From Candidatus Gastranaerophilales bacterium (GTDB taxonomy: Bacteria > Cyanobacteriota > Vampirovibrionia > Gastranaerophilales > Gastranaerophilaceae), in the NCBI GenBank assembly GCA_944325065.1, contig CALUYS010000001.1, positions 35,439 to 99,438 of the forward strand: a stretch of DNA of 64,000 bases, in the 5' to 3' direction. How positions within the stretch are numbered: the stretch's first letter is position 1; each line of letters opens with the position of its first letter. The position numbers and the translations under genes were made by a program. The notes under the pieces were generated by a model that did no database searches, was not told the DNA's origin, and was given only the letters and a program-made list of their open reading frames with translations. Shown here one piece after another: positions 8,072-29,324 of the stretch.

Positions 8072-11034
8072 TGTCAACTAATCCCAAGATATCTGTTATA
8101 ATGTCAAGTTATAATCGTACTCAATATATAAAAGAAGCAATTGAGTCAATATTAAATCAAACATATCAAGATTTTGAATTTATTATTATTGATGATTGTT
8201 CTAAAAAAGAAACTCAAGATGTTATTGAAAACTATGCACAGAATGATGAAAGAATAATTTTTTTGAAAAATGAATATAATATGGGTCAAGCCTTAACTCG
8301 AAATAGGGGACTTGAAATTGCAAAAGGTGAATATATTGCAATTTTGGATGATGATGATATATCTTTACCAACACGTTTTGAAAAACAGGTGGAATATATG
8401 GATAAAAACCCTGAGATTATACTTTCCGGAACTGATATCGAAACTTTTGGTGGTAATGAAATATCATCATCTTGGGTAGATTTATTTGACCCTGAAATTA
8501 TATCAGTTTTAATAAATTTTTATAATCCTTTTTGTGCTTCAACTTTAATGTTCAGAAATAATTTTATAAAAGAGCATAATATTAAATATGATAATAGTGT
8601 TTGTCATGTAGAAGACTATGATTTGTATAGGCAAATTCTTGTAGCAGGTGGAAAAATTTCTAATTTGCCTCAAGTGCTTGTAAAATATAGAGTTCATAAA
8701 CAAAGCGTGACTCAGAATAAACAAAGTCAGAAAATACAAATCCTTGCATCAGAAAAAGTTAAACAAAGGTTATTAAGTAGATTCTTTGACAATAAAACAG
8801 TAGAAAAAATTATTAATACTATAAAATCTTATCCTTTTTACAATGCTAATAATAAAAAGGATATTTATGAATATCTTATGCTTATGAAAAAAAATAATAG
8901 CAATAAAATTATTAACAATAATTCAATAGATAAAACAATTGAGTTTATATGTGGAAAATCTTCGATAATGAATATATTCTTTTCTTCTAATAATAATTAT
9001 TCTCAACATTTATGTGTATCTATTGCATCTATACTTATTAATTCTTTACCAATTGAAAATTTTAATTTTTATATTTTAGACGGAGGGATTAAAGATAAAA
9101 ATAAAGAAAAAATATTAAATTTGAAAAGAATTAAAAATTTTAATATTGAATTTATAAAAATTGACGATAAACTTTTCAAGGATTGTGATATTACTTCAGA
9201 ATGTATGCATATTTCTAAACAAACATATTATAGATATATAATTCCAAAATTGAAACCTCAAATAAAAAAATGTTTATATTTAGATTGTGATATTGTTGTT
9301 AATAATAGTTTAAATGAATTGTGGAATATAGATTTAGAAGATAATTATATTGCAGCAGTTGAAGATTTATCATTAATAACAAATGATGATGCAAAACGTC
9401 TTGAAATAAATCATTATTTTAATGCCGGTGTTCTGCTAATTAATAATGAACTTTGGATAAAAGATAATATTACGGAACTTTTATTCCAAAATACATTAAA
9501 AATAAAAGATAAAATTCGTTGGGTTGACCAATGTGTTTTAAATTATACATTTAAAGATAAAGTTTTATTTTTATCTCCGAAATATAATTTACAGCATAGT
9601 GCATATAAAGATACAAAATATAATATATATAGTAAAGACCAAATTGATTTTGTAAAAAAATTTCCTATAATTATTCATTATTCAGGTAGTGATAAACCTT
9701 GGAGTAAAAAATGTATTCATAGTTTATGGAAACAGTATTATAAATATTTAAAATATACTCCTTATAAAAAACAATATTGTACTTATAAATTAAAAAAAAT
9801 TTTAAAAAATATCTTAAGAAGTATTTTTTCAATCCAAAATATAGAATGTTATAAGCTGGTGAAATTTTTTGGTTTAAAATTTTATATTAAAAATAAACAG
9901 AAAGAATATATGTTAAAACTTGAAAATGATATAAAAAATGATATAAAAAATATTGAACATCTTATAAATGGAAATAAGATTTATATAGATGATATTGATA
10001 TTAAAATTAAGAAAAATATACTACAAAATAGTAGATTATGGGATGCTCAATGGTATTTAAAAACATACGGATATAGTTATTATAAAACGGAAGCTTTGAA
10101 TTATTATATTGAAACTGGGTGGAAGAAAAAAGAAAGTCCTTCAAAATATTTTAATACCGAATATTATCTTTTAAAATATGGTAATACTTTGAATAATGAA
10201 ATTCCTGTTATTCATTATTTAACAAAAGGTAAATATTGGTGTTATTATTTAGATAATAAGAACAATTATAAGTCAAAATTTGATGAACAAAATATAAAAA
10301 ATTATCTTGAATACAAAAATAATAGAAATGCTAAAGGTGTTATTTATACTTGTATTACGAATGATTATGATGATATATATGAAATAGAGACATATAAATA
10401 TGTTAATAAAGATTGGGATTATGTTTGTTTTACTGATAATCAAGAACATATAAAAAAGGGACAAATAGGTATTTGGCAGATAAGACCTTTGGCATATTGT
10501 GAATCTGATAACACTCGTAACAACAGGTGGCATAAAATACATCCTCATATTTTATTTCCTGAATATGAAAAAAGTATATATATTGATGCAAATATTAATA
10601 TTTTATCAAATAAATTATTTAATATAATCAATCAAAAAAATACTAATATTGTTCTACCTGAACATTTTAATACTTCTTGTATATATCAAGAACTTAATTG
10701 GGCTTTGGACTCTGGTATAGATAATTATAATATTGTGTTTAAACAATATGAACTTATAAAAAATTCTAATATGCCGAAAAATTATGGATTTACTGAAAAT
10801 AATCTTATTTATCGTAAACATAATGAAAAAAATGTTATTGATTTAATGGATGAATGGTGGTATATGGTATCAAATTATTCAAAACGTGATCAGTTATCAT
10901 TCGTATATTTATTATGGAAACGGCAAATTGATATAGAAGATATCACATTTAAAAATACAAGAATTGATGATGAAAATTTTTATGTATTTGACCATAAAAA
11001 GTTAAGGGAAAAAAGTATTGTTTGTATAAAATAA
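8071..11034 (+). CDS. Multidomain glycosyltransferase: GT2 - GT8 - internal tag module - DUF616/TOD1-like domain
   Basis: 987 aa. N-terminal ISVIMSSYNRTQYIKEAIESILNQT..IIIDDCS (GT2). Middle NIFFSSNNNYSQHLCVSIASIL..YLDCDIVV..HYSGSDKPW (GT8). Tag at 9823-9891. C-terminal GVIYTCITNDYDDI..WDYVCFTD..NRWHKIHPH..IYIDANI..RDQLSF (DUF616-like). Confidence 0.8.
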   Translation: MSTNPKISVIMSSYNRTQYIKEAIESILNQTYQDFEFIIIDDCSKKETQDVIENYAQNDERIIFLKNEYNMGQALTRNRGLEIAKGEYIAILDDDDISLPTRFEKQVEYMDKNPEIILSGTDIETFGGNEISSSWVDLFDPEIISVLINFYNPFCASTLMFRNNFIKEHNIKYDNSVCHVEDYDLYRQILVAGGKISNLPQVLVKYRVHKQSVTQNKQSQKIQILASEKVKQRLLSRFFDNKTVEKIINTIKSYPFYNANNKKDIYEYLMLMKKNNSNKIINNNSIDKTIEFICGKSSIMNIFFSSNNNYSQHLCVSIASILINSLPIENFNFYILDGGIKDKNKEKILNLKRIKNFNIEFIKIDDKLFKDCDITSECMHISKQTYYRYIIPKLKPQIKKCLYLDCDIVVNNSLNELWNIDLEDNYIAAVEDLSLITNDDAKRLEINHYFNAGVLLINNELWIKDNITELLFQNTLKIKDKIRWVDQCVLNYTFKDKVLFLSPKYNLQHSAYKDTKYNIYSKDQIDFVKKFPIIIHYSGSDKPWSKKCIHSLWKQYYKYLKYTPYKKQYCTYKLKKILKNILRSIFSIQNIECYKLVKFFGLKFYIKNKQKEYMLKLENDIKNDIKNIEHLINGNKIYIDDIDIKIKKNILQNSRLWDAQWYLKTYGYSYYKTEALNYYIETGWKKKESPSKYFNTEYYLLKYGNTLNNEIPVIHYLTKGKYWCYYLDNKNNYKSKFDEQNIKNYLEYKNNRNAKGVIYTCITNDYDDIYEIETYKYVNKDWDYVCFTDNQEHIKKGQIGIWQIRPLAYCESDNTRNNRWHKIHPHILFPEYEKSIYIDANINILSNKLFNIINQKNTNIVLPEHFNTSCIYQELNWALDSGIDNYNIVFKQYELIKNSNMPKNYGFTENNLIYRKHNEKNVIDLMDEWWYMVSNYSKRDQLSFVYLLWKRQIDIEDITFKNTRIDDENFYVFDHKKLREKSIVCIK
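9823..9891 (+). other. Tag module copy 2 (internal, shortened)
   Basis: IFSIQNIECYKLVKFFGLKFYIK, located between the GT8 and DUF616-like parts. Confidence 0.65.
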
Positions 11035-14229: not shown

Positions 14230-15315
14230 ATGAAAATTTTAGAAAAAATAATATCTATTAAAAATCAATATAATAATGGTTATAAATACAAAAAATTGAA
14301 TATTTTAGGAATAAAAATTAAACATAAATCTGGAGAGCAATTTTTTAAAGAAAAAAGAAAAATTGATAAAATAAGAAATAATTTCACAATTGATATTAAT
14401 AAATTTTCTAAAAAATATAAAACTAATAAAATATATCCATTTTTAGTAAACCATATTTCCCATATTGATGAAATAAACGAGTTTTTATACAGTAAATTAT
14501 CTTATGTTGATAAAAAAACTTTTATAGAATTTCTTTTTAAACGATATGCACAAGTTGAAGTTATAGCAGACAATGAAAAACAAAAACTTGATAAAATATT
14601 TAAACAAATTGATAAATTACTATTAGCTAGAAAAAATATTTATGAACCAGTTGAGATAGAAAGTGATATTTTTAATTGTGGCAAAAAGGTAATTAAATTT
14701 ATAACAGGTAAAGAAAATGTTGAGCAAATTGGTGAAATATGTGCTTGTTATAATATAGTTCATTCATTTATTTTAAACGAATATTTTTTAGATGGTTTTT
14801 TGCCTGAAAATGGTAAGGTAATATTAGATTGTGGAGCAGCTATGGGGGATACTGCAATTGTATTTTCAAAACAATATCCTGATTCAAAAATTTATAGTTT
14901 TGAATGTATTGGAAAAAATATTGAGTTATTAAATAAAAATTTAGAATTAAATAATATATCTAACGTTATTCCAATAAAGACTTTTTTAGCGTCAAAAACT
15001 GGTAAAATTAATATTGATAGTATAGAATATGATTCAATATCAATCGATGATTATGTTAAGAAAAATAATATTAATAATATTGGACTTATTAAGTTTGATA
15101 TTGAAGGTGCTGAGTTAGAAGCATTAAATGGAGGCATAAATACTATTAAAGAACACAAACCACTATTATACATTCCTATATATCATTTGGAAACTGATAT
15201 ATATGAAATCCCTAAATTTATATATAATTTAGGTTTAAGAACCAAGTTCGGATTAAAATGGGTTGAAAAAAGAATTTGGGGAGTTGATTGCGTTTTATTT
15301 TGTAAGTTTGTGTAA
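14230..15315 (+). CDS. FkbM family methyltransferase with N-terminal tag module
   Basis: LDCGAAMGDTAIVF and IKFDIEGAELEAL are FkbM signatures. The tag lies at aa 7-33. Confidence 0.75.
   Translation: MKILEKIISIKNQYNNGYKYKKLNILGIKIKHKSGEQFFKEKRKIDKIRNNFTIDINKFSKKYKTNKIYPFLVNHISHIDEINEFLYSKLSYVDKKTFIEFLFKRYAQVEVIADNEKQKLDKIFKQIDKLLLARKNIYEPVEIESDIFNCGKKVIKFITGKENVEQIGEICACYNIVHSFILNEYFLDGFLPENGKVILDCGAAMGDTAIVFSKQYPDSKIYSFECIGKNIELLNKNLELNNISNVIPIKTFLASKTGKINIDSIEYDSISIDDYVKKNNINNIGLIKFDIEGAELEALNGGINTIKEHKPLLYIPIYHLETDIYEIPKFIYNLGLRTKFGLKWVEKRIWGVDCVLFCKFV
14248..14328 (+). other. Tag module copy 4 (N-terminal on FkbM MTase)
   Basis: IISIKNQYNNGYKYKKLNILGIKIKHK. Confidence 0.75.
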
Positions 15316-15323
15316 AATACATT

Positions 15324-16148
15324 TTAATTTTTACAAACCGCAATAAGTTTTTCATATGAAGAACATATCCCAACTTCAACTATTTCTGTTTTTAAAGGAT
15401 TGGGTAAAGAATATAGTTTTACATCTTTATAATACATTTTTAAAATAAAGTAAAGCTCGCCTGCATCAAATTCTTGAGTATGATATTTATAAGGAGGTGC
15501 TACAATTTCTTCTTTTTTATAATATCGATCTCTGTTTGGTGTTGCAATAATTGCATAATCTGATAATTGAACAAATTTATCTAAAAATGACTTATAATCT
15601 TTTATATGTTCAATAACGTCTATTGAAATGGCAAGATCAAATTTTTGAGGATATTTTTCAAGAATTTCTTCTATACTATAATCACAATAAGTTACATTTT
15701 GTATGTTTCTATTTTCAATTACCCACCTTGTTGAGCTTTGATCCATTTCAGAAGCTAAAAAATTAATATTAGGATAAATTTTTGCGTTATAATATTCAAA
15801 AGTTCCAACACCACTTCCAATATTTACAATATTTTTTACACCATTTAAAAAATTCATACCTATAACTTTATTACAGTTTATCATATCTTCCCATTCAAAA
15901 ACACCACCATTTTTGACTCTTTCTAGTTTTATTTCTATATTGCCACATCCTAATTCATTTTCATTACCTTTATATTTATATCCGCATTGTGAAATTAAAT
16001 TACTATTATATATACTTGATGGTGATAAGATTTTTGTATAATTATATTTTTGTTTAAACTTTATATTTAAGCCTAAAATATTTATGATTTTATGTTTTTT
16101 ATTATTCTTATATTCATTTTTAATAGAAAATACATTTTTTAAATTCAT
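15324..16148 (-). CDS. Class I SAM-dependent methyltransferase with N-terminal tag module
   Basis: VNIGSGVGTFE (motif I) and DLAISIDVIEHI. The tag lies at aa 6-32. Confidence 0.7.
   Translation of the reverse strand: MNLKNVFSIKNEYKNNKKHKIINILGLNIKFKQKYNYTKILSPSSIYNSNLISQCGYKYKGNENELGCGNIEIKLERVKNGGVFEWEDMINCNKVIGMNFLNGVKNIVNIGSGVGTFEYYNAKIYPNINFLASEMDQSSTRWVIENRNIQNVTYCDYSIEEILEKYPQKFDLAISIDVIEHIKDYKSFLDKFVQLSDYAIIATPNRDRYYKKEEIVAPPYKYHTQEFDAGELYFILKMYYKDVKLYSLPNPLKTEIVEVGICSSYEKLIAVCKN
16053..16133 (-). other. Tag module copy 5 (N-terminal on class I MTase)
   Basis: VFSIKNEYKNNKKHKIINILGLNIKFK. Confidence 0.85.
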
Positions 16149-16169: not shown

Positions 16170-18047
16170 TTAATTAAAGCTACAATTTTTACATTCTTTA
16201 TTAATTCGTCCATGTTTTTTATGAAAATTTCTAATTGATTCATAAATTCCATTTGTATAAGTATTTAATATTTTTGAATTTTTTATATTTTTCTTTATAA
16301 TGCCTTCTGCATCAAAACAACAAAGAGCAAAATCTCCATTACTCAATATGCTTATTGTTCTATATAAAATTTCACATGGTTTTTTTAATAAATTATTTTT
16401 TTGCGGACAGTTATTTTTTTTCTCTTTATTTACCCATTGACCCAATTTAATAATACGAATATTTGCAAAATTCTCAAATTTATTTTTAAAATTTGAAACC
16501 ATATCTTTATTGTCAATGTGTGAAACGATTGATACATTTATTTTTATGTCACTTTTTAGCTTTTGTTTTAATTTAAATAATAAATTAAGATTATTCAGTG
16601 TGAGATTCAAATCTAGTCCCATTATTTTATTATATTCAACTTCATCAAGAGAATTGATACTTACTGTTATTTCATCAAGTTTGGCTTCTAATATTTCATA
16701 AAGTAATTTTTCATTTGCAAGTTGTAAATTTGTTGTAAATCTTATTGGTATTTGAGGAAAATTTTCTTTTAATTTTTTAATTCGACTGACAATTTTTTTA
16801 TCAAGCAAAGGTTCACCATTTAAATGTAGAATAAATTGCGTTACTTTGATTTTTTCATCTTTAATTCTTTTTATTATTAAATTAAAAATTTCATCAGTCA
16901 TAAAATTTTTTTTTCTTACAAGATTTGGATTTGGACAAAATTTACATTTTGCATTACAAAAACTTGTTGTTTCAATTTCTATTTCAAAATTCAATTTGTT
17001 TGTTTTTAGTAAATAATCTTTAGATGAATTTAATGAAAGCAAATTTTGACTTTTCGTTTTTATTAAATTTAAAAAATTATTTTTCTTATTTTCTATTTTT
17101 AATAATTTTCCGAGTTCATAATCCCACTCGATTGGTTCAAAAGCTTCCATGCCATTGCCTGGATAAAAAGTGACTTCACTAAAATAAATTTGATTGTTTA
17201 CATTATAAAAATCAACACGTGCAAATTGAAAATCTTTACCTAGAATCTCGGCAAGTTCTACTAATTTATTTAAATTTTGAGGTTTTTTTATACCGTTTGG
17301 TGAATTTTTATATAGTCTTTCAAAAGGTAATTTATTCCAATTTATATCATAAAAATCTACATATAAATTATTTTTTCGATTTGAAACAACAAATAAATTT
17401 TTAACTTTTCCATTGTAGCACATAAATTTATAGTCATATAAATCATTATTTAGTTGTTGTATATATTTTTCGCATATTATTTTGGGTTTAATATTTTTAT
17501 AAGACCATTCAAAAGAATAAAAATAGTGATTTGAACGCGGCTCAAGCCACTCATTTAATTTAGTCTTTGTTTCTTCTATATTTAATTGTGACTTATCTTT
17601 AACAATAATATTTTGTCCACTACCCCAATTAACTTTTAGTACAAATTGATTGGGTAAAGCACTAAAATCAATTTCATCAGGATTATTGTAAACTCCAATT
17701 AATGGTATAAGGTATTCTTCTCCTATTTTTTCTTTAATATAATTTCGAACAAGATATTTATCCGCACACTTAGTCAATAGTGGATCTTCATTATACAATT
17801 TTAGCCATTGCATTTTTTCATTAAATGTTTTTGGGCTATCAATATTTGGTTTATAGCCAACCTGCTCTTCAAATTGTTTTTCAACTATTAATTTTTTTTC
17901 TTTTATTGAAATATCTGGACTATATCTTTTATTTAGAGCTTTTTCATATTTTGAAAATAATCTCAATTTGAGTTTTAATCCTAAAATATTTATAACTTTA
18001 TGTTTTTTGTTATTTTGATATTCATTTTTTATTGATAGTAATTTCAT
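16170..18047 (-). CDS. Fusion protein: N-terminal tag, TupA-like ATP-grasp domain, then radical SAM (SPASM-like Cys-rich C-terminus)
   Basis: TFNEKMQWLKLYNEDPLLTKCADKYLVRNYI..FVLKVNWGSGQNIIVKDK (ATPgrasp_TupA-like). ETTSFCNAKCKFCPN (CX3CX2C). C-terminal CEILY..CCFDAEG..CKNC. Likely start is ATG 18047, after GGGAGA; the ORF track starts at TTG 18059. Confidence 0.75.
   Translation of the reverse strand: MKLLSIKNEYQNNKKHKVINILGLKLKLRLFSKYEKALNKRYSPDISIKEKKLIVEKQFEEQVGYKPNIDSPKTFNEKMQWLKLYNEDPLLTKCADKYLVRNYIKEKIGEEYLIPLIGVYNNPDEIDFSALPNQFVLKVNWGSGQNIIVKDKSQLNIEETKTKLNEWLEPRSNHYFYSFEWSYKNIKPKIICEKYIQQLNNDLYDYKFMCYNGKVKNLFVVSNRKNNLYVDFYDINWNKLPFERLYKNSPNGIKKPQNLNKLVELAEILGKDFQFARVDFYNVNNQIYFSEVTFYPGNGMEAFEPIEWDYELGKLLKIENKKNNFLNLIKTKSQNLLSLNSSKDYLLKTNKLNFEIEIETTSFCNAKCKFCPNPNLVRKKNFMTDEIFNLIIKRIKDEKIKVTQFILHLNGEPLLDKKIVSRIKKLKENFPQIPIRFTTNLQLANEKLLYEILEAKLDEITVSINSLDEVEYNKIMGLDLNLTLNNLNLLFKLKQKLKSDIKINVSIVSHIDNKDMVSNFKNKFENFANIRIIKLGQWVNKEKKNNCPQKNNLLKKPCEILYRTISILSNGDFALCCFDAEGIIKKNIKNSKILNTYTNGIYESIRNFHKKHGRINKECKNCSFN
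17961..18041 (-). other. Tag module copy 6 (N-terminal on ATP-grasp/radical SAM fusion)
   Basis: LLSIKNEYQNNKKHKVINILGLKLKLR. Confidence 0.85.
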
Positions 18048-18065
18048 TTTATCTCCCAATATTTT

Positions 18066-18218
18066 TTACATAATTTTTATTATCGTTACCTTGGTAAAAT
18101 CCCCTACATATATTAACACAAAAAAATTATAACTTATATAAATAATATTTCTTTATTATGAAATAAAAAAATGTATTATTAAGGCACTTATCTGGTAACG
18201 ATAATAAAAATTATGTAA
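18066..18218. repeat. Perfect 25 bp inverted repeat (18066-18090 / 18194-18218) flanking a 103 bp AT-rich spacer in a divergent promoter region
   Basis: TTACATAATTTTTATTATCGTTACC on the left is the exact reverse complement of GGTAACGATAATAAAAATTATGTAA on the right; I checked it base by base. The arms end 18 nt and 15 nt from the two divergent start codons. Confidence 0.9.
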
Positions 18219-18233
18219 GAATGGTTTTTTAAA

Positions 18234-19208
18234 ATGGGAGAACATAAAAATAATATAAAAATCGCTTTTTGTTTTGATAATAATTTGATGAAACAAATTT
18301 GTGTTACGGTTGCAAGTTTGCTTGATGCTAGTAAAAATAGTTGTTCTCATTACGATATTTATTGTATATGTTCCAATGGAGCAGAAAAAGTTGAAAATAA
18401 GTTAAAAAAAATTGTTAAAAAACGCGATAAATTTTCAAATATATTCCTATATCCAGTAGAAAATAAATATGCAAATGGTTATGAAATTAGAAAAATTACA
18501 AGTGGTGCATATTTAAGACTTCAATTGCATAATATTTTATCAAATCTTGATAAAATTATTTATTGCGATGTAGACATTTTATTTAAAAATAATTTGCAAG
18601 AAATTTGGGATATTCCTATTGATCACAACTATTTTATGGGGGTAAAAGGAGCTAATAATTTAAGTCATATTTGGAATGAAAATCTTATAAAATTTAATTA
18701 TTGGAATAAATTTGACAAAAATACTTATATTAATAGTGGGGTAGTTGTTATGAATTTACAAAAAATTCGTGATGACAATCTTGAAAAACAATGGGAAAAC
18801 ATGGTAAATGATGCTTATTTTTACGTGGATCAAGACATTATTAATATTGTTTGTAAAAATAAAATAGGATTTTTGCCTTTAAAATATAACATTCCTGCAT
18901 ATTTAGATAATAATACTCTTTTAAATTATGAAAAAGAAAATATATATGAAAAATCTTTCATTGAAGATGCAATAAATAATCCATCAGTTATTCACTATGC
19001 AGGAGAAAAACCTTGGGATAATCCAAATATATTAAATAGTTATTATTGGATTAATTATGTAAAAAGTCAAAAGGATTTGAAAAAAATGTTTAAAACAAAA
19101 CAAAAAATAAAATTATTTAGCATAAATAATGAATATTCAAATAATAAAAAATACAAAGTTATTACTTTATTTGGAATAAAAATAAAACTACGATGTAAGA
19201 AAGGGTAA
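18234..19208 (+). CDS. GT8 family glycosyltransferase with C-terminal tag module
   Basis: IKIAFCFDNNLMKQICVTVASLL, YCDVDILF (DxD), NSGVVVMNL, HYAGEKPW. Confidence 0.8.
   Translation: MGEHKNNIKIAFCFDNNLMKQICVTVASLLDASKNSCSHYDIYCICSNGAEKVENKLKKIVKKRDKFSNIFLYPVENKYANGYEIRKITSGAYLRLQLHNILSNLDKIIYCDVDILFKNNLQEIWDIPIDHNYFMGVKGANNLSHIWNENLIKFNYWNKFDKNTYINSGVVVMNLQKIRDDNLEKQWENMVNDAYFYVDQDIINIVCKNKIGFLPLKYNIPAYLDNNTLLNYEKENIYEKSFIEDAINNPSVIHYAGEKPWDNPNILNSYYWINYVKSQKDLKKMFKTKQKIKLFSINNEYSNNKKYKVITLFGIKIKLRCKKG
19113..19205 (+). other. Tag module copy 7 (C-terminal on GT8)
   Basis: LFSINNEYSNNKKYKVITLFGIKIKLRCKKG. Confidence 0.85.
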
Positions 19209-19210
19209 AA

Positions 19211-20530
19211 ATGTTAAATTATAAAAAAATATTACTTATAAATCCTTATATCAAACTAGATCGAGAAAATCCAATCGCTATACTTGATATGGCTCCATAT
19301 TTTAGAAAATGTGGTATAGAAGTTGATGTATGTAATTTTCCCGATCTACCTGAGTTTAAAGATTATGATATGATAGGTATAAGTTGTATTTCAAGTGAAG
19401 GCGGATATATTTTTGAGCAACTTAAAGTTATTCGCGAACATTTTCGAGGAAAGAAAATAGTTATTGGTGGAAAATGGTCAACAACAATGACAGAGGAAGA
19501 AGCTTTAAAATTGCAGACTTTAAATATTGAAGTTGAAACAGGCAAAGGAGAACTTGTTTATACAAATGATAAAGTTATAAATTTTGAAAAGTATCCTTCA
19601 TGGGATAAAAATGATTTTGAAATTCTGTGTGCCAATAATATAATGATGACATCTCGTGGTTGTCCTTTTCATTGTAATTTTTGCAATAATACCGAAGAAA
19701 AAGTAAGTTATTTTACTGCTAAACGAACTGTAGATAATCTTGAACTTATTTTGAGTAAAAATAATGATGTATACTTTGTAGATGATATTTTTGTTACAAA
19801 TTATGAACATGCAAAAGCAATTTATGATGAATGTAAACGACGTAAAATTAAAATTGAAAACCATAATAAATTTTTTGTACATCTAAATACGGTTAATGAT
19901 AAAACTATTAAAATAATCAAATTGTTTAAACCCAAAATGGTTAATGTTGGCATTGAGTCAGGTAATGATTCAATGCTAAAAAAGATGAATAAAAAAACAA
20001 GTGTTGAAAAAATAAGAAAAAATGTAAAAACTCTTTCAAAATATACAAATGTCCATGGTTTATGGATGGTCGGTTATCCTTATGAAACAATTGATACACT
20101 TAAAAATTCTTGGAATTTAATGAAGGAACTTGCTCCATACATACATTCAAATTGGATAAGTCATTATATTCCCTTGTATGCTACAGTTGGATATCATATG
20201 GCAATGGAAGAAGGTGGTAAATTTAATCAAGGTATTGATAATCGTCATGTTGCTTATATACCTAAAGGTTTAACTCAAGACATTTTAATTGAATATAGAA
20301 CAAAAATGATGCAATTTAATAATATTTTATTTAAAAGACAAAATATATACAAATATTACTTTTATAAAATTGTTTCAAAAATTTCAATAGGTAAATTAAG
20401 AAAAAAAGTTAAGGCAAAGTATAAAACATTAAAGTCGCAATTCTCTCCCCCCCCCCCGATAAAATCCAATATTTTAGATTTAATTTATATTCTAAGATTA
20501 TCTTGTTTTTTAAATGTTTTTTATATTTGA
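19211..20530 (+). CDS. B12-binding-domain radical SAM enzyme (class B-like)
   Basis: The N-terminal ~130 aa have a Rossmann-like B12-binding layout, followed by MTSRGCPFHCNFCNN (CX3CX2C) and VGIESGND. The 3' end contains a C11 tract. Confidence 0.7.
   Translation: MLNYKKILLINPYIKLDRENPIAILDMAPYFRKCGIEVDVCNFPDLPEFKDYDMIGISCISSEGGYIFEQLKVIREHFRGKKIVIGGKWSTTMTEEEALKLQTLNIEVETGKGELVYTNDKVINFEKYPSWDKNDFEILCANNIMMTSRGCPFHCNFCNNTEEKVSYFTAKRTVDNLELILSKNNDVYFVDDIFVTNYEHAKAIYDECKRRKIKIENHNKFFVHLNTVNDKTIKIIKLFKPKMVNVGIESGNDSMLKKMNKKTSVEKIRKNVKTLSKYTNVHGLWMVGYPYETIDTLKNSWNLMKELAPYIHSNWISHYIPLYATVGYHMAMEEGGKFNQGIDNRHVAYIPKGLTQDILIEYRTKMMQFNNILFKRQNIYKYYFYKIVSKISIGKLRKKVKAKYKTLKSQFSPPPPIKSNILDLIYILRLSCFLNVFYI
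20447..20457 (+). repeat. Homopolymeric C11 tract inside the 3' end of the B12-radical SAM gene
   Basis: Counted directly: ttctct + 11 C + gat. It encodes SPPPP in the called frame. Confidence 0.95.
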
Positions 20531-20548: not shown

Positions 20549-21454
20549 ATGAAATTTATTTCTTTTAAAAACGAGTATTTAAACGATAAAAAGTATAAAG
20601 TTTTAACTTTATTTGGAATAAAATTTAGATTTAAGTCAAAAAAACAAAATCAAATAAACAATTGTAATTATTTGCAAACATTACCCCGCTTGGAGATTCA
20701 TGTATGTGATAAATGCAATTTAAATTGTCGTGGTTGTACACATTATTGTAATGTTGCACAAGAAGATAGATTTGTTGATATAAGTAATTTTGAAAAGGAT
20801 ATAAAAGAAGTTGCTAAAAAACTTAATTTTTATGAAATCAAACTTTTGGGTGGTGAACCTTTGCTACATCCTAATTTAATTGAATTCTTTAGATTAACTC
20901 GTCAAGCATTTCCAACAAGTAAAATTATTTTAACAACGAACTTAATTTTGCTTGATACGATGAAAGAAAATTTTTGGGAAGCTATGAAGAAACACAATAT
21001 TGTTTTTCAATTGACAAAATATCCTCCAATGAATGAAAAATTTGTTCACTATTTGGATTTAATTGCTTCTCATAATATTATTATCGACAATATTCATGTT
21101 GCAAATGAGTTTTGGTTGTTTAAAAATCCGAATGGAGATTCAAATTCTCAAGAAGTTTATAAACAATGTCCTGAAGCTTATTGCCGACAACTTCGTGACG
21201 GAAGATTATATATTTGCCCTGATGCTTGTTATATGGATTATTATAATAAATACTTTAGTAAAAATATTCCAGTTGACAAAGGAATAGATGTTTATAAACA
21301 TTCAAGTGAGGAAATTTATAATTATTTGACAACACCGAAAGAAACTTGTAAATTTTGTTTTGCAAAGGACAAATTTAAATACGTACCTTGGGAAAAATCA
21401 CAAAAAAAATATGATGAATGGGATGGAGAAGTGGCAAATGAAGTTATTGTTTAA
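20549..21454 (+). CDS. Radical SAM enzyme with N-terminal tag module
   Basis: LEIHVCDKCNLNCRGCTHY (CX3CX2C), LLGGEPLLHP. The tag lies at aa 3-29. Confidence 0.7.
   Translation: MKFISFKNEYLNDKKYKVLTLFGIKFRFKSKKQNQINNCNYLQTLPRLEIHVCDKCNLNCRGCTHYCNVAQEDRFVDISNFEKDIKEVAKKLNFYEIKLLGGEPLLHPNLIEFFRLTRQAFPTSKIILTTNLILLDTMKENFWEAMKKHNIVFQLTKYPPMNEKFVHYLDLIASHNIIIDNIHVANEFWLFKNPNGDSNSQEVYKQCPEAYCRQLRDGRLYICPDACYMDYYNKYFSKNIPVDKGIDVYKHSSEEIYNYLTTPKETCKFCFAKDKFKYVPWEKSQKKYDEWDGEVANEVIV
20555..20635 (+). other. Tag module copy 8 (N-terminal on radical SAM)
   Basis: FISFKNEYLNDKKYKVLTLFGIKFRFK. Confidence 0.85.
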
Positions 21455-21490
21455 GTTTAAGCTTATTAGATAATAATGAAGAGGTATAAA

Positions 21491-22351
21491 ATGAATACAA
21501 TAAATAAAAATGGAATATCAGAAGTAACGACGTCACAATTTGGTGAGGATATTATTGTTAATTACTTAATAAAATTATTAAAAAACAACAATATTATTAA
21601 TGATATGACATATATTGATATTGGAGCTTGTGATCCTGTTAGAAATAATAATACAATTAGATTTTATGAACAAAATTTAAATACAAATATGATGTTGAAA
21701 AGTGTTTTAATTGAAGCAAATCCTTATCAATATGAAAGATGTAAAAAAAATCGTCCTAATGATATAGTTCTTAATGCAATAATTGTTGATAAAAAAAATG
21801 ATAATAAAAAAATACCATTTTATGTATTTGCGAATGAATCTGGTTTGAATACAATGTCAAAAATTCAAGCTGAAAGTATATTAAAAGAATTACCTAATGT
21901 ATTTACTCATTATGATACTGTTATGGTTGATACAATAACGATAAATGAAATAATAGACAAATATTTTAATAATAAACCACCAGTTTTTATAGATCTAGAT
22001 ATCGAAGGAATAGAGTTAAAAATATTAAAATCTTTTAATTTTAAAAAATCCAAACCTTTGATATGGTGTATTGAAACATCTGAATTAATTACTGACTTTG
22101 AAGTTGGGAAAAAAGAGAATGACATAGTAAGTTTTATGAAAAGTAAAGGCTATGAGGTATATGCTGATACTTATTTAAATACTATTTTTATAGATAAAAA
22201 TATTTTAAAAAAACTTGTCCGCAAGCATAGTATGAAAAATAGTTGTATAAATATAGAAAAGATATTTTCTATAAAAAATAAATATTCAAATAATAAAAAA
22301 CATAAAATTTTGACTATTTTTGGTGTAAAATTTAAGATAAGATGTAAATAG
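21491..22351 (+). CDS. FkbM family methyltransferase with C-terminal tag module
   Basis: YIDIGACDPV and FIDLDIEGIELKIL. I prefer the ATG at 21491, after GAAGAGG; the ORF track starts at 21476. Confidence 0.7.
   Translation: MNTINKNGISEVTTSQFGEDIIVNYLIKLLKNNNIINDMTYIDIGACDPVRNNNTIRFYEQNLNTNMMLKSVLIEANPYQYERCKKNRPNDIVLNAIIVDKKNDNKKIPFYVFANESGLNTMSKIQAESILKELPNVFTHYDTVMVDTITINEIIDKYFNNKPPVFIDLDIEGIELKILKSFNFKKSKPLIWCIETSELITDFEVGKKENDIVSFMKSKGYEVYADTYLNTIFIDKNILKKLVRKHSMKNSCINIEKIFSIKNKYSNNKKHKILTIFGVKFKIRCK
22262..22348 (+). other. Tag module copy 9 (C-terminal on FkbM MTase)
   Basis: IFSIKNKYSNNKKHKILTIFGVKFKIRCK. Confidence 0.85.
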
Positions 22352-22366
22352 AAAAAGGGTTGTATA

Positions 22367-23299
22367 ATGAAACAAATATTAATTACAGGTGGGGCAGGTT
22401 TTATAGGGAGTCATTTATGTGAAAGATTATTAAATGAAGGCAATGAAGTTATATGTCTTGATAATTTTTTTACAGGTTCAAAAGAGAATATAAGACATTT
22501 ACTTGATAATAGTAGGTTTGAACTTGTTCGTCATGATGTAACAAACGAGTATTATGCTGAAGTTGATCAGATATATAATATGGCATGCCCAGCATCTCCT
22601 CCGCATTATCAATACAACCCTATAAAAACAATAAAAACATCTGTTTTGGGGGTTATGAACATGCTTGGACTTGCTAAACGTTGTTGTGCAACAATATTAC
22701 AAGCTTCGACATCAGAAGTGTACGGAAATCCACTTATTCACCCTCAAACAGAAAATTATTGGGGAAATGTTAATCCTATTGGAATAAGAAGTTGTTATGA
22801 TGAAGGAAAAAGATGTGCGGAAACTTTAATGATGGACTATTATCGACAAAACAAAGTTGATAGTCGGATAATTAGAATTTTTAACACCTATGGACCAAAT
22901 ATGGATCCAAATGACGGTCGAGTTGTTTCTAATTTTATTGTCCAAGCATTGAAAAACAAAGATATAACTATGTATGGTGATGGAAGTCAAACAAGATCTT
23001 TTTGTTATGTTTCAGATTTAGTTGATGGCATAATCAAAATGATGAACAATGAACAAAAGTTTATTGGGCCTGTTAATTTGGGTAATCCAAGTGAAAGAAC
23101 TGTGTATAACCTTGCAGAATTAATTATTAATTTGACAAATTCAAATTCAAAAATAAAATTTAAACCATTACCTCAAGACGATCCGCTCCAAAGAAAACCT
23201 GATATATCTTTGGCTAAAAAAGAACTTAACTGGGAACCAAAAGTTGATATTAAAGAAGGTCTATTAAAAACAATTGAATATTTCGCAAAAAAAATATAA
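22367..23299 (+). CDS. uxs: UDP-glucuronate decarboxylase (UDP-xylose synthase)
   Basis: [79 protein letters not shown]. Confidence 0.9.
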
Positions 23300-23313: not shown

Positions 23314-24288
23314 ATGCAACTTATTGATTTAGAAAAAGAAAATATAAATAAATACAATGAGTTAAAACCAATAATCGGCGGTGTAATTTCACAATCTTGT
23401 GAACAAGTTAATTTTTTATCATATTTAATAAAAAAATATAAACCTCAAAAAGTATTAGAACTTGGAGTCGCATCAGGTGCATCAAGTATTGTTATATTAA
23501 ATACATTAAAAGAAATACTGAATAATTATCATCTTTATTCAATAGATTATTTATCTTATTGGTATGCAAACCCTAATAAAAAAACAGGTTTTTTAGTTGA
23601 AGAAAAAACGCCTGAATTAATAGATAAGTGGACTTTAAAAACGGGTGGTCTTGCTTGTGAATTTATGGATAAAATATGTCCGAATGGTGAAAATGATATT
23701 GATTTTTGTTTCATTGACACAATGCATATGCGTCCTGGTGAAATATTAGATTTTCTAATGGTGTTACCTTATTTAAAGAAAAACGGTGTTGTTGTTTTTC
23801 ATGATACTGTTTTACAGACATTGGGTGAAAAATATAAAAATTATGATTGCAATTGTATATTATATAGTGCTATTAAAGGAATAAAATATCAACCTTTAAA
23901 AGATACTTCATATCCTTCAAATATTGGTGCTGTTATATTGGATGAAAATATAAAAGATAATCTTTATGATATATTTAGTTTGTTATTGCTAAGTTGGTTT
24001 TATAAAATAGAGGAAAATGAATATTTACAAATTTTATATTATTTTGAAAAACATTACAATTCGTATTTGATAGAAATTTATAAACAAGCTTATTATTACA
24101 ATAATGCTTTAGTAGATAAAAAATTAAAAAATGGTAAATTAACCAATAAAGATATTTGTAAAATGTATAAGTATATGATATTATCAAAGTTAGGGATAAA
24201 AAAATATAAAGATAAATTAAATAATTATAAAGAAAAAATTTGGGTTAAAACAAAAAAAATAATTGAAAAGGAGTTAATTTTATCATGA
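23314..24288 (+). CDS. Class I SAM-dependent methyltransferase-like protein
   Basis: VLELGVASGASSIVIL and FCFIDTMH..NGVVVFHDT fit a Methyltransf_24-like layout. The C-terminal ~100 aa are unrecognised. Confidence 0.55.
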   Translation: MQLIDLEKENINKYNELKPIIGGVISQSCEQVNFLSYLIKKYKPQKVLELGVASGASSIVILNTLKEILNNYHLYSIDYLSYWYANPNKKTGFLVEEKTPELIDKWTLKTGGLACEFMDKICPNGENDIDFCFIDTMHMRPGEILDFLMVLPYLKKNGVVVFHDTVLQTLGEKYKNYDCNCILYSAIKGIKYQPLKDTSYPSNIGAVILDENIKDNLYDIFSLLLLSWFYKIEENEYLQILYYFEKHYNSYLIEIYKQAYYYNNALVDKKLKNGKLTNKDICKMYKYMILSKLGIKKYKDKLNNYKEKIWVKTKKIIEKELILS

Positions 24289-25610
24289 AAGTATGTGTAA
24301 TAGGCACAGGATATGTTGGTTTAGTAGCAGGCACGTGTCTTGCTGAGATGGGAAATGATGTAATCTGTGTTGATAATAACCTTGAAAAATTGAGTCAACT
24401 CAAAAATGGTATTATACCAATTTATGAACCTGGGCTTGAAGAACTTATAAAAGCGAACGTTTCTGAAGGAAGATTATTTTTTACCTCAAATTTAAAAGAA
24501 GCTGTTGAACAATCACTTGTTTGTTTTATTGCTGTTGGGACTCCTCAAGGTGAAGATGGTGAAGCTGATTTAAAATATGTATATGAAGTTGCAAAAAGTA
24601 TCGGACAATCAATTAATGATTATAAAGTTATAGTTGATAAATCAACTGTTCCTGTTGGAACAGCTGATGCTGTTAGTAAAATTATTAAAGAACAAACAAA
24701 CATTGAATTTGATGTTGTCTCTAATCCTGAATTTTTGAAACAAGGTGCAGCTGTGGATGATTTTTTGAAACCTGATAGGGTTGTAATTGGTTCAAACTCT
24801 CAAAGGGCAACTGAGATAATGCAAGAATTATATTCACCATTTTTGCGTACCGGAAATCCAGTTATTATTATGGATGTAAAATCAGCTGAAATGACAAAAT
24901 ATGCAGCTAATTCATTTTTGGCTGTTAAAATATCATATGCAAATGAAATAGCAAATATCTGTGAGCAAGTTGGTGCTGATGCTGAAATGGTGCGTATTGG
25001 AATGTGTTCAGATAAAAGAATAGGTTCACAGTTTTTGTTTCCAGGGTTGGGCTATGGAGGCAGTTGTTTCCCCAAAGATGTAAAAGCTCTTCTTAAGACA
25101 GCAAAAAAAAATAATTGTGATTATCAACTTCTTCAAGCTGCTGATAATGTTAACAAAAAACAAAGACAAGTTTTTCTTAATAAAATTTTAAATAAATATG
25201 GCAATGATTTAAATGGAAAAACATTTGCAATTTGGGGATTAGCTTTTAAACCTAAAACTAATGATATGAGAGAAGCACCTGCCATAACAATTATTAATGC
25301 TTTGTTAGAAAGAGGAGCTAAAATTCAAGCTTATGACCCAAAAGCAATGGATAGTGCAAAAGAAATTTTTGACAATAAAATAACTTATTCTAAATCAGCT
25401 TATGATGCTTTAAATAATGCTGATTGCATGCTTTTACTTACTGAATGGAATGAATTTCGTCGCCCTGATTTTGATAAAATAAAGTCATTGATGAAAGAGC
25501 ATGTTATTTTTGATGGACGTAACCAATATAATTCAAAACGATTAATTGAAAAAGGTTTTGAATATTATCAAATTGGTAAACAAACAAATAATGTCTTAAT
25601 TAGTATTTAG
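24285..25610 (+). CDS. ugd: UDP-glucose 6-dehydrogenase
   Basis: MKVCVIGTGYVGLV, NPEFLKQG, GYGGSCFPKD (catalytic Cys), LAFKPKTNDMREAP. ATGA start/stop overlap with the previous gene. Confidence 0.9.
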   Translation: MKVCVIGTGYVGLVAGTCLAEMGNDVICVDNNLEKLSQLKNGIIPIYEPGLEELIKANVSEGRLFFTSNLKEAVEQSLVCFIAVGTPQGEDGEADLKYVYEVAKSIGQSINDYKVIVDKSTVPVGTADAVSKIIKEQTNIEFDVVSNPEFLKQGAAVDDFLKPDRVVIGSNSQRATEIMQELYSPFLRTGNPVIIMDVKSAEMTKYAANSFLAVKISYANEIANICEQVGADAEMVRIGMCSDKRIGSQFLFPGLGYGGSCFPKDVKALLKTAKKNNCDYQLLQAADNVNKKQRQVFLNKILNKYGNDLNGKTFAIWGLAFKPKTNDMREAPAITIINALLERGAKIQAYDPKAMDSAKEIFDNKITYSKSAYDALNNADCMLLLTEWNEFRRPDFDKIKSLMKEHVIFDGRNQYNSKRLIEKGFEYYQIGKQTNNVLISI

Positions 25611-25620
25611 ATAATCTAGT

Positions 25621-27407
25621 TTAATCAAAGCAAGAATTAAAAACATTATCAAGAGAAACATCGTTTTGTTGGTATTTTTTCTCAAAATTATTAGTTATCT
25701 CTTCTTGGTTAATAGTTTGTGACGTTTTATAATATGTGTCGACTTTATAATATGTATAAGTGTTGTTATTATTTTTAAATCTCAAATAGTTCCAAGCATG
25801 TCCCCCATTATCAATAGCACATGCTTGGAGATTTTCTAATTCTGAATTATTTATTAAGTGGTTAACAAGTGTAGCCATATGTCGACAAACACCCAAACCA
25901 TAAACTAAACCTACCATGTTATCATCAAAAACATTACATTCTTTTTCTCGTTCTATTTCACCTAATAAACAATGTTGTAATAAATTATCATTATCCTTGG
26001 GATAAAATTCATTAATTGTCTCTTGTAAACTTTGTATAATATTTTCTGGTGTTCTATTATTAGCAATTTTATTTTTAAAGCATTCTAAAGCTTTATTTTT
26101 TTGTTTATCAATTTCTTGTTTTATAGTATTATTATTTATAATATTTAAAATACTTTTTATATGTGATATATTTCCTTTGTGTTGAGATAATAAACGAACA
26201 ATTTCTTCTTGTTTACTTTTAAATGGTATATTTTGATTTAAATAATTTTTAAATTTTTCTTGTTCTTCAATTCCTAATTCAATTGATGATGTTTTTTTTT
26301 TATTGGTTCAGTATTTTGTGATATTTTATAACTATTATTATTAAAATCGAAAATATGTGTTTTATCACTAGTTCTATAAACTAATTTATAATCATCTAAA
26401 GTATAATTTTTTAATTTATCATTATCTATTAAATTTTTTATTAATGTAATTATTTTATTTTTAGTAATAATTTCATATTGCAATAACGCATCATCAACTT
26501 TTTTATCAGAATTATTTAAATTTTTGAAAGTTAGTTCTTGAAGATATGTCATTACTTGACTAGGATCATTAGGTGTTTCCATTCTTAAAAGAGGAGCAGT
26601 TATATTGTTTTCTAAAGATAAAATTTCTTGCTCATTTCTTTTTGTATTATTCAATATTGTTTTTAGTATTTTATCAATATTATTATTATCATTTTCATGA
26701 ACTTCTAATAACGTTTCTATAAATTCTTTTTTATAGTCAGTTGAAGCACTACTTTGTAAAATCTTTTTTAAACTTTTATTGTTTTTTTCAAAATCTTTTG
26801 AAAGTTTGCTTTTTGCTTCTAATAAATTCTTATTTGCATTTAAGGTATTACAAATTTCATCAAACCCCTCTACACCATTAAAAAAATCTTGAGTAAAATT
26901 AATATAATTATTTAAATATTGAATACGTTCGGCAATTTTCATATTTTTGCATTCTATTATTTTTTTAAAATGTGCATTAATACAATCAATAATTTTAATT
27001 GATATTTCTTCTTCTGGTTCTTTTTTTAATAAACTATTTAATTCTTCAATATTTTTTGCAAGTTGTTTATGATCAATTTTTGGCTCATTTAAACATTTAA
27101 CATAGTCATCAATGGATTTTTCTTTGATTTTTGGAAGTTTTTCTTTTATTTCTTCATTATTAAATGTTTTTTTAATTTTTTTACCGTTAAAGTAACAAAC
27201 ACCTGTAACTATAGCTAAACCCAAAGTACAAGCACTTGCTATTATCCAATTACGTTTTGTTTTTGATGATTTTTTTTCATCTTTATTTCTTAAAGAAATA
27301 TATTCATCATTTGAAATACCAAACTTTATATGTTTATTTTGTTGACATATATTGTTAGTATTAATGTTATTATTATTATTATTTATACTATTTACATTCA
27401 TATACAT
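25621..27407 (-). pseudogene. Membrane-anchored protein with C-terminal transglutaminase-like Cys-His-Asp domain, split by a frameshift at an A10 run (T10 at 26292-26301 on the plus strand)
   Basis: ORF 26274-27407 (TM segment WIIASACTLGLAIVTGVCYF) stops just after the run. My hand translation shows a second frame open without an ATG from 26307 down to 25621. That frame ends in GLGVCRHMA..GGHAWNYL..VDTYY. Adding one A fuses the two frames. Confidence 0.65.
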
Positions 27408-27847
27408 TAATATAAAAGTACGTCAAAAAAAAAATTAACGTACTTTTAAATAAAATTAATAAAAATTTACAATAGTTATTATGTATTACATTTTTTATTA
27501 TTTTTACTTTCAATCCAAACATAAGTTTGATTAAAAGCATTATTAAATGGGTTATATCTAAAATTTTTATTTGTAAAAGGATTACTAGCTTTACAATCAA
27601 AATTAATGATTTTATTCAAAATTACTTTAAAATATTTATATAAATTCATAAAATTAAAAACTTCCACTTTAAATTACAAATTTATTATGCATTTTTTTTC
27701 AAGTAATATAATTAGACAAATGGGTTAAATTTAATTTTTCAAAAGCATAATTTTTAAATTTATAATAAATAGAGAGAAAAATAATAGTTGCAATATATAA
27801 AAAAAAGCTGTATACTTAACATAGGTTTTAAATAGGGAGATTAGGAC

Positions 27848-28180
27848 TTGGTTGATAACAGTTCATCTTTTAAGAACGTTGGTACCTCGGGAATCAATTT
27901 TAAGGATGCACAAAGTAATGCAGGTAAGTTAAATGATGAAAAAATGGGATCAGAAGCACAATATTATTCACAAGAACAGGAGGAAGAAAATAACGAAGAA
28001 AATATAGAGCAAAAGTCACCTTACGTAGATAGAAGTGCACAATTGAATGCTTCGTTAAACTCACTTGCTATGATGAATGTTATTAAAGTATTAAAAAAAG
28101 GTAAAGATAAAGAAAAATTTTTAAGAGAATTTGATTTTAGAAAGGAAGAAGTAAAAAGTGTTGAAAGTGATGAAGAATAA
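27848..28180 (+). CDS. Small acidic hypothetical protein (TTG start)
   Basis: 110 aa, with GGGAGA 7 nt upstream of the TTG. Glu-rich. Overlaps the start of the SLH gene. Confidence 0.45.
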   Translation: MVDNSSSFKNVGTSGINFKDAQSNAGKLNDEKMGSEAQYYSQEQEEENNEENIEQKSPYVDRSAQLNASLNSLAMMNVIKVLKKGKDKEKFLREFDFRKEEVKSVESDEE

Positions 28181-29324
28181 TTTAAGAAAAATTTTATTGT
28201 CTTTTTTTATTTTTTTTGTAAGCTCATTGTTTATTAATGTATATGCATTTAATGATATGGATAAAACACATTGGGCTTATAATTATATAAATCAACTTGA
28301 AAAAGATGGTGTTGTTGTAGGATATCCAGATGGTAATTATCGTCCAGAACAATTTGTAACACGTGCTGAGTTTGCAACAATGGTTGTAAAGGCATTAAAT
28401 CAAGGTAATTATGAGGTTAGTGAAATAACAAATTTTTCAGATGTTGATACTGGTTTTTGGGGATATGATAATATTCAAAGAGCTGTATATTTAGATGTTA
28501 TGAAAGGTTTGCCAAATGGTACATTTTTACCTCAAAACCATATATCAAAAGCTCAAGCAATAGCAATTGTTGTAAGCTCTTTAAAGACTGATGATATGAC
28601 TGAAAGTGAAGCTAAAAGTATTTTAAATAATTCATATTCGGATGTTGAAAATGTTGAAAGTTGGGCTTTAATTCCAACTGGAAAAGCTAAAAGTATGGGA
28701 CTTATTGTTGATGTGCCAGGTTTTGATGGCAAATTAGCACTTAATGAGAATGCTACTCGAGCTGAGTTGGCTGCATATTTATCCAATATGATAGAATGGA
28801 CAAAAAAAATCCCAAATGAAAAAATTGAAGAAACTATGAAACGCAAAGCTGATAATGGGTATGTTGTTCAAGGTGTACAGTTTGATGGTAAATATGCTAT
28901 TATTCCAAAAGGTACTTTATTACCTGTGGCAATGAATCAAAAGGTTTCTACACAAACATTTAAAAATACCCAAGAACTTGGTGGATATTTACCTCAAAAT
29001 ATTATAAGTGAAGATTATTACCTTTTACTTGATGAAAAGTCTCAAATATATGGTCAATCACTTCAAGTTAAAAAAGCTTGGTTATTTATAAGAAATGGAA
29101 AACTTGTTATTGAAACACGCAATATAAGAACCCCAATCCCACAAGTTTCATATTTTTGGGCTTTATCTGAACAATATCCTACCTATAAGTCAAGCTTTAC
29201 TGAATTTTTAAGAAAAATATTTAAAGGAGCTAAAATAGAAGTTCAAAAAGATGAAGTTATAAATGTTAAACTCTTAGAAGATATTCGTATTGATTTAACA
29301 ACAGGGAAAATTGTTCATTATTAA
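28170..29324 (+). CDS. Secreted protein with three N-terminal SLH domains and an unrecognised C-terminal domain
   Basis: Signal peptide MKNNLRKILLSFFIFFVSSLFINVYA. Three SLH-like repeats: FNDMDKTHWAYNYINQL..VTRAEFATMVVKAL, FSDVDTGFWGYDNIQ..ISKAQAIAIVVSSL, YSDVENVESWALIPTGKA..ATRAELAAYLSNMI. Confidence 0.75.
   Translation: MKNNLRKILLSFFIFFVSSLFINVYAFNDMDKTHWAYNYINQLEKDGVVVGYPDGNYRPEQFVTRAEFATMVVKALNQGNYEVSEITNFSDVDTGFWGYDNIQRAVYLDVMKGLPNGTFLPQNHISKAQAIAIVVSSLKTDDMTESEAKSILNNSYSDVENVESWALIPTGKAKSMGLIVDVPGFDGKLALNENATRAELAAYLSNMIEWTKKIPNEKIEETMKRKADNGYVVQGVQFDGKYAIIPKGTLLPVAMNQKVSTQTFKNTQELGGYLPQNIISEDYYLLLDEKSQIYGQSLQVKKAWLFIRNGKLVIETRNIRTPIPQVSYFWALSEQYPTYKSSFTEFLRKIFKGAKIEVQKDEVINVKLLEDIRIDLTTGKIVHY

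Follow-up and report, generated by a model that had tools for sequence, protein, structure and literature searches.

Known invertible switches at surface loci

The Escherichia coli fimS switch is a 314-bp segment with 9-bp repeats that is inverted by FimB and FimE, tyrosine recombinases encoded by adjacent genes, and gives ON and OFF subpopulations. In Campylobacter fetus (sapA promoter inversion) and Salmonella (Hin/fljBA), one invertible promoter picks between two surface products. The C. fetus element is kilobases long and inverts by homologous recombination between sap cassettes, and the Hin segment is about 1 kb, contains its own recombinase and works through a repressor. Sites of the Hin/Gin/Cin type measure about 26 bp and are dyad-symmetric about a core of 2 bp, and the recombinase gene lies inside or adjoining the segment. 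The capsule invertons of Bacteroides have invertible segments of roughly 170-190 bp that are acted on by the recombinases Mpi and Tsr; the recombinase can be unlinked, and inverted repeats of the Mpi type contain the core motif ARACGTWCGT.

Promoter invertons of capsular polysaccharide loci have been described in Bacteroides fragilis and B. thetaiotaomicron (PMC8748976, PMC11892184). The cps1 inverton of Akkermansia muciniphila lies beside a capsule locus, is conserved across strains and was found in both orientations in sequence data and in stool (PMC13343947). Clostridioides difficile has small invertible segments (the flgB, cwpV and pdcB switches) that are flipped by a tyrosine recombinase, RecV, giving ON and OFF subpopulations (PMC7446863, PMC9286219). 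In Haemophilus influenzae, a variable intergenic element co-controls the two divergent surface-structure genes hifA and hifB (van Ham et al. 1993, as summarized in PMC11868660). The literature searched contains no report of promoter invertons in Melainabacteria, Gastranaerophilales or Cyanobacteria; an hsdS "epigenetic inverton" is the only one listed for Melainabacteria (PMC7672463).

Comparison with a locus in Gastranaerophilales

We analyzed a 64-kb stretch of Gastranaerophilales DNA, referred to here as the window, in which a 103-nt segment between inverted repeats separates two divergent units of glycan genes (Table 1). Like the Bacteroides capsule invertons, it is a short intergenic segment with inverted repeats of about 20-25 bp, located at a surface-polysaccharide operon of a gut commensal, and it contains a candidate promoter. 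Unlike those elements, the segment is only 103 bp long and lies between two divergent operons, with arms that adjoin both start codons and a predicted OFF/ON reciprocity. The phylum also differs (Melainabacteria), and no recombinase gene is adjacent. We do not classify the element as Mpi-type: the arm (TTACATAATTTTTATTATCGTTACC) lacks the ARACGTWCGT motif and the host is a member of Gastranaerophilales, not Bacteroidales.

The similarity to Akkermansia cps1 is that an invertible element is conserved at a surface-sugar locus and is seen in both orientations. The cps1 element has a different inverted-repeat motif (CGGATT..AATCCG), controls one locus and has experimental support, whereas the element described here is known from sequence alone. 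As in fimS and the C. difficile switches, a small invertible segment is bounded by short inverted repeats. There is no adjacent recombinase of the kind found at fimS. Each C. difficile switch controls a single downstream operon, in some cases via leader RNA, whereas two operons are served here.

The predicted toggle is like those of C. fetus and Hin, but here a cassette of 153 bp that contains no gene is connected directly to both operons. It is not of the Hin/Gin/Cin type, given that the 103-nt segment contains no gene, no recombinase is nearby and the arms have no clear dyad. At hifA/hifB, the length of a TA repeat alters the spacing between -35 and -10 and both genes are ON or OFF together; here the change is an inversion and the predicted outcome is reciprocal.

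Table 1. Features of the invertible element and its flanking genes, in window coordinates
Feature	Position	Strand	Basis or observation
SAM-dependent methyltransferase, second and last gene of leftward unit	15324-16148	-	Pfam
ATPgrasp_TupA + Radical_SAM + SPASM fusion, first gene of leftward unit	16170-18047	-	Pfam; ATG at 18047
Left inverted-repeat arm, presumed recombination site	18066..18090	.	Identical in 13/13 related assemblies; 23/25 in L105
Invertible segment, 103 nt	18091..18193	.	Both orientations among assemblies
G-run GGGG, predicted transcription start	18104->18101	-	5 nt downstream of the -10, spacing conserved in L105; predicted
Extended -10 TGTTAATAT, best promoter candidate	18118->18110	-	Motif scan and conservation in L105; predicted
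Right inverted-repeat arm	18194..18218	.	Identical in every related assembly reaching that arm; L105 copy degenerate
GT8 glycosyltransferase, first gene of rightward operon	18234-19208	+	Pfam
Radical SAM, rightward operon	19211-20530	+	
Poly-C tract C11, inside radical SAM gene 19211-20530	20447..20457	+	Length differs between assemblies
Radical SAM, rightward operon	20549-21454	+	
FkbM methyltransferase, rightward operon	21476-22351	+	
UXS-like epimerase/dehydratase, rightward operon	22367-23299	+	
Methyltransferase, rightward operon	23314-24288	+	
UDP-glucose dehydrogenase (UGD), rightward operon	24285-25610	+	

An inverted repeat between two divergent glycan units

The left arm is TTACATAATTTTTATTATCGTTACC and the right arm is its exact reverse complement, on which direct reading, a repeat finder and a pattern search are concordant. 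The spacer between them is very AT-rich and gene-free. Pairing of the arms can be extended to 28 nt with one mismatch (18063-18090 / 18194-18221). Arms and spacer occupy 153 bp of an intergenic region of 186 nt, with 18 nt between the left arm and the start codon of the ATP-grasp gene and 15 nt between the right arm and that of GT8. This is the geometry of an inverton, a short intergenic segment between paired inverted repeats.

At a tolerance of up to three mismatches, the pattern search found two arm copies in the 64 kb, namely these two arms, and no copy was present in 100 dinucleotide-preserving shuffles. The perfect 25-nt inverted repeat is beyond chance expectation. A sequence-only reading made earlier had described a perfect 25-bp repeat around a 103-bp spacer, judged it far beyond chance, put its arms 15-18 nt from start codons and placed the element between two divergent glycan units. 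Three checks reproduce the repeat, and the shuffles, the measured distances and the gene calls with Pfam agree with the other points.

The bases just outside the arms are unlike (T at 18065, against the complement of the G at 18219), so that k-mers of at least 27 are orientation-specific. The arms lack the clear internal dyad that is common in recombinase sites, a point against the inverton reading; the best arrangement pairs 8 of 13 positions, which is weak and uninterpretable in AT-rich DNA. The region has no match to an Rfam family even at E <= 1 and no intrinsic terminators were found in it. Comparison of the spacer with the other intergenic regions of the window gave low-complexity chance matches only.

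The leftward unit has two genes and is bounded by a convergent gene (14230-15315, +). Its ATP-grasp fusion gene is preceded by a Shine-Dalgarno sequence (GGGAG, 18053-18057) and is called identically in the public contigs. The GT8 gene has no clear Shine-Dalgarno sequence. Upstream of it is a mini-ORF of three codons (ATG GTT TTT TAA, 18221-18236) that stops one base before the GT8 start codon. A T6 run within it (18225-18230) is T5 in contigs L021 and L022, and the ATG of the mini-ORF would there be in frame with GT8.

Other repeats occur in the window. A 91-nt inverted repeat with 74% identity (14238-14328 / 16053-16143) consists of paralogous N-terminal coding segments of the two convergent methyltransferase genes (14230-15315, +, and 15324-16148, -). 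Arms of 47 nt form a further, imperfect inverted repeat (77%; 27392-27438 / 28206-28252) around 767 nt, situated between a gene for a hypothetical protein (26274-27407, -) and a gene for an SLH-domain protein (28158-29324, +). The SLH-domain protein fits a diderm lineage, and proteins with 90% or more identity to DnaA, IlvC and DnaJ of the window carry NCBI names of Candidatus Gastranaerophilales or Candidatus Melainabacteria MAGs. Two metagenome contigs (L009 and L011) end inside a 987-aa GT2+GT8 fusion gene (8071-11034), which suggests strain-level variation, or another feature that breaks assemblies, in the upstream glycan cluster.

Both orientations among related assemblies

We gathered the public contigs that encode exactly the GT8 or ATP-grasp proteins of the window, followed by those encoding close allelic variants of the ATP-grasp protein. 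Orientation A is the spacer as it stands in the window, and orientation B is its exact reverse complement. Four assemblies have A (the window, L020, L021, and L022) and nine have B (L001/L006, L002, L003, L004, L017, L018, L019, L103, and L104), with identical arms and flanks. The first four of the B carriers are metagenome contigs from four samples, and L017 derives from the NCBI MAG GCA_949292415.1. Contigs L001-L008 are essentially 100% identical to the window outside the spacer. Both orientations thus occur with unchanged flanks in real sequence data, and the inverton-type phase variation proposed by the sequence-only reading is directly supported by near-identical strains that share identical arms and flanks.

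One ATP-grasp protein allele is present with A (in the window) and with B (in L006). A SNP in the spacer (18107 C>T) is likewise found in A (L020) and in B (L017), and these two contigs also share a fusion of the GT8 and radical SAM genes. As the same allele and the same spacer SNP are associated with both orientations, inversion must have happened more than once, and not just as a single old event.

In three contigs, which come from three samples and were built by two assemblers, the sequence breaks off exactly where an arm meets the spacer: L005 begins with base 18194, and the last base of both L007 and L008 is 18090. Because assembler k-mers are longer than the arms, such breaks point to mixed orientations in the reads and are a third indication of recurrent switching; they are indirect evidence that both orientations may coexist within samples. 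Two B contigs (L018 and L019) end mid-spacer and not at an arm, one of them beside a T7 run; low coverage or the homopolymer are possible causes.

In related strains, the ATP-grasp gene differs by 2.2-3.9% at the nucleotide level and both arms are unchanged. The 186-nt intergenic region of these diverged strains has at most one substitution or one 1-nt indel. We regard it as almost certain that the 103-nt segment is a real DNA inversion switch.

Recombinase genes and other copies of the arm

Essentially every window ORF of 100 aa or longer was scanned with Pfam and NCBIfam, and none was identified as a recombinase, which upholds what the sequence-only reading had stated. The unannotated ORFs of the window, when checked for hydrophobicity and inspected by eye, also showed nothing recombinase-like. 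Nor was a recombinase found in the flanking DNA, of which 10 kb on the left side and about 2.7 kb on the right side were covered.

The exact 25-mer of the arm has no match in 185,579 GTDB species genomes. In JGI metagenomes, the inner 20-mer has two unrelated chance matches, neither with a partner repeat. The nearest GTDB match to the ATP-grasp gene is in a Gastranaerophilales MAG, and a search for related loci with the ATP-grasp/radical-SAM protein returned 78 loci. Upstream of the gene, there is no inverted repeat in the nearest Gastranaerophilales relatives, L025 (69% identity, restricted to the ATP-grasp domain) and L059. The nearest GT8 homologue outside the species (P0188 on L106, 58% identity) is part of a glycan locus that is unrelated and has no repeat of this kind.

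Promoter candidate and sister locus

The organism uses sigma-70-type promoters, as indicated by the promoter of the tRNA-Leu gene in the window (TTGATT-17-TATTAT). A PWM scan of the spacer found promoter-like hexamers on both strands. In the sense upstream regions of the window, which has a GC content of about 25%, there is no enrichment of extended -10 or -35/-10 patterns. Motif scans have low power here for this reason, and we used comparison with the contig L105 instead.

L105 is syntenic and bears P0069, the next full-length relative of the ATP-grasp/radical-SAM protein (80% protein identity). Its left arm matches at 23 of 25 positions, and the adjoining approximately 58 nt of spacer align in the A arrangement. 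Of the right arm there is only a degenerate copy (23 nt, 78%), so that L105 has one intact arm. The opposing operon of L105 begins at uxs and has a promoter of its own (TTGACC-17-TAAGAT).

The counterpart of the candidate -10 in L105 is TGTTATTAT, in the same place and on the strand that faces the ATP-grasp gene. On that strand, the window and L105 have in common the pattern TGTTAWTAT-N5-G-run, followed by the arm and then by GGGAG. A rival element on the + strand (TGGTAAAAT, 18092-18100) is destroyed in L105, and the motif scan found no good outward promoter at the right end of the spacer. The candidate -10 lies 71 nt upstream of the ATP-grasp start codon in A; in B, it would precede the GT8 start by about 68 nt.

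Based on this one sister-locus comparison, a single outward promoter at the CCCC/GGGG end of the spacer is most likely. We predict that the ATP-grasp/radical-SAM and methyltransferase pair is ON in state A. In state B, which is the majority among the public assemblies, the seven-gene GT8 operon is predicted to be ON.

Poly-C tract and variable gene content

No G/C homopolymer of 7 nt or more occurs in the 64-kb window apart from the C11 tract in the first radical SAM gene of the rightward operon. The window, L001, and L003 all have C11, which gives a product of 439 aa; in L002 the tract is C10, with a frameshift and a product of 416 aa. Contig L004 stops at the base before the tract. A homopolymer within a coding sequence whose length varies between populations, with a shift of frame, is what defines a simple-sequence contingency locus, and the tract is probably a slipped-strand contingency tract that adds a second layer of phase variation.

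Close strains also differ in which genes the rightward operon contains. L017 and L020 share a 590-aa fusion of GT8 with radical SAM, uxs comes immediately after GT8 in L021 and L022, and L105 is without GT8. The inverton is kept in L017, L020, L021, and L022 but not in L105. The glycan locus behaves as a contingency locus at several levels.

Three proteins from related loci (P0072, P0073, and P0078; 640-940 aa) combine GT8, radical SAM/SPASM and ATP-grasp domains in single polypeptides. P0078 is 49% identical to the GT8 of the window and 71% identical to the ATP-grasp part, and a short motif at the C-terminus of the window GT8 (…KKYKVITLxGxKIK…) recurs in its linker. Such architectures suggest that the two divergent units may be parts of one modular enzyme family. 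The fusions also hint that the units might work together in a single pathway and not be alternatives to each other.

Proposed mechanism

As the arms adjoin both start codons, the promoter of either unit is expected within the spacer or would have to read across it. We propose that a site-specific recombinase, presumably encoded elsewhere in the genome, pairs the 25-bp arms and inverts the 103-bp segment. The segment would carry one dominant outward promoter, the extended -10 listed in Table 1, with transcription starting at the G-run. In orientation A, this promoter would read through the left arm, as part of the 5'UTR, into the ATP-grasp/radical-SAM and methyltransferase genes. In orientation B, the same promoter would read through the right arm into the genes for GT8, two radical SAM proteins, FkbM, UXS, a methyltransferase, and UGD.

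A population may consist of cells that each bear one of two alternative surface-glycan decorations, and the poly-C tract in the second gene of the GT8 operon could provide a further on/off layer. We infer the identity and direction of the promoter, the reciprocal expression, the catalysis by a recombinase, and the phenotype from the arrangement of the locus. Taken as a whole, the best explanation, and one that we consider likely, is an inverton in which one dominant promoter is redirected between the two divergent glycan units.

Alternative explanations

The main live rival to the toggle, which we think unlikely, is an inverton with two promoters, one in each direction, where inversion swaps the stronger for the weaker. 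Both operons would always be transcribed and the effect would be a graded re-balancing. Candidates are present on both strands: the inner TTACC of the arm plus one base forms a -35-like hexamer at both ends of the spacer, and 17 nt after these hexamers is TATATT (18109, +) or TACATT (18175, -). These inward-facing candidates would be convergent, however, and would overlap within 103 bp. Separate divergent promoters do occur in L105, but the + strand candidates of the window are conserved there in neither sequence nor spacing, and at the right end of the spacer no outward-facing promoter of good quality was found. The occurrence of GT8, radical SAM, and ATP-grasp domains as fusions in relatives is in favor of two promoters, as co-expression might be needed.

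It is very unlikely that the two orientations represent a rare, essentially fixed strain polymorphism that arose when homologous (RecA-type) exchange occasionally took place between the 25-bp repeats, in which case there would be neither a dedicated recombinase nor a regulatory role. This would fit the lack of a recombinase in the window, in the 10 kb to its left, and in the approximately 2.7 kb to its right, and also that no single assembly has been shown with both orientations as full contigs. It is at odds with the finding of the same protein allele and the same spacer SNP in both orientations, with three contigs that break exactly at the arm edges, and with arms that are perfectly conserved beside diverged coding flanks. 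Moreover, repeats of 25 bp just reach, or fall short of, the length usually needed for efficient RecA-dependent exchange.

Another possibility, highly improbable in our judgment, is that the arms are primarily two operator or leader copies bound by one regulator that co-controls both operons, and that inversion is incidental. Identical 25-nt sequences at near-equal distances from both start codons, which would lie in both 5'UTRs, favor this reading. The recurrent, exact inversion bounded by the arms is left unexplained, and L105 works with one intact copy. The sequence-only reading had offered a static shared operator or leader as an alternative, and this does not account for the flipping. Operator and recombination-site roles of the arms are mutually compatible.

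An assembly artefact or a MITE-like insertion, the latter also raised by that reading, is hardly credible: a 153-bp unit with terminal inverted repeats does look MITE-like and inverted repeats can confuse assemblers, but the flanks have no target-site duplication (…ATATTTT / GAATGGT…), there are no dispersed copies of the arm in the window or the 185,579 GTDB species genomes and chance matches only in JGI, k-mers are orientation-specific at the k values of assemblers, and independent assemblies from different pipelines agree on the two forms (nine B, four A). The cruciform that the reading had also considered is implausible with a loop as long as 103 nt.

We conclude that the element is probably a promoter toggle between two glycan-decoration modules. 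A broader proposal is that the 153-bp cassette combines a reciprocal toggle with poly-C slippage in Melainabacteria and is served by an unlinked recombinase that may control further switches; we consider the chances that all of this holds to be evenly balanced.

Implications for Gastranaerophilales

Gastranaerophilales are uncultured gut bacteria for which metagenomes are the sole source of knowledge, and Melainabacteria are the non-photosynthetic sister lineage of cyanobacteria. To our knowledge, almost nothing is known about how Gastranaerophilales deal with host immunity or phages. The new aspect is probably the presence of a promoter-type inverton in a lineage for which the literature searched has no earlier description; the class itself is well known.

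Assemblies of MAGs break at this locus or fix its orientation arbitrarily, and the deposited orientation should not be equated with the state of the organism. A compact switch between two operons would be a clean natural example of a two-state toggle and is a candidate part for synthetic biology. For Gastranaerophilales, the locus would place DNA-inversion phase variation and homopolymer slippage together on a surface-glycan cluster, a strategy documented until now mainly in Bacteroides, Akkermansia, Clostridioides, and Proteobacteria.
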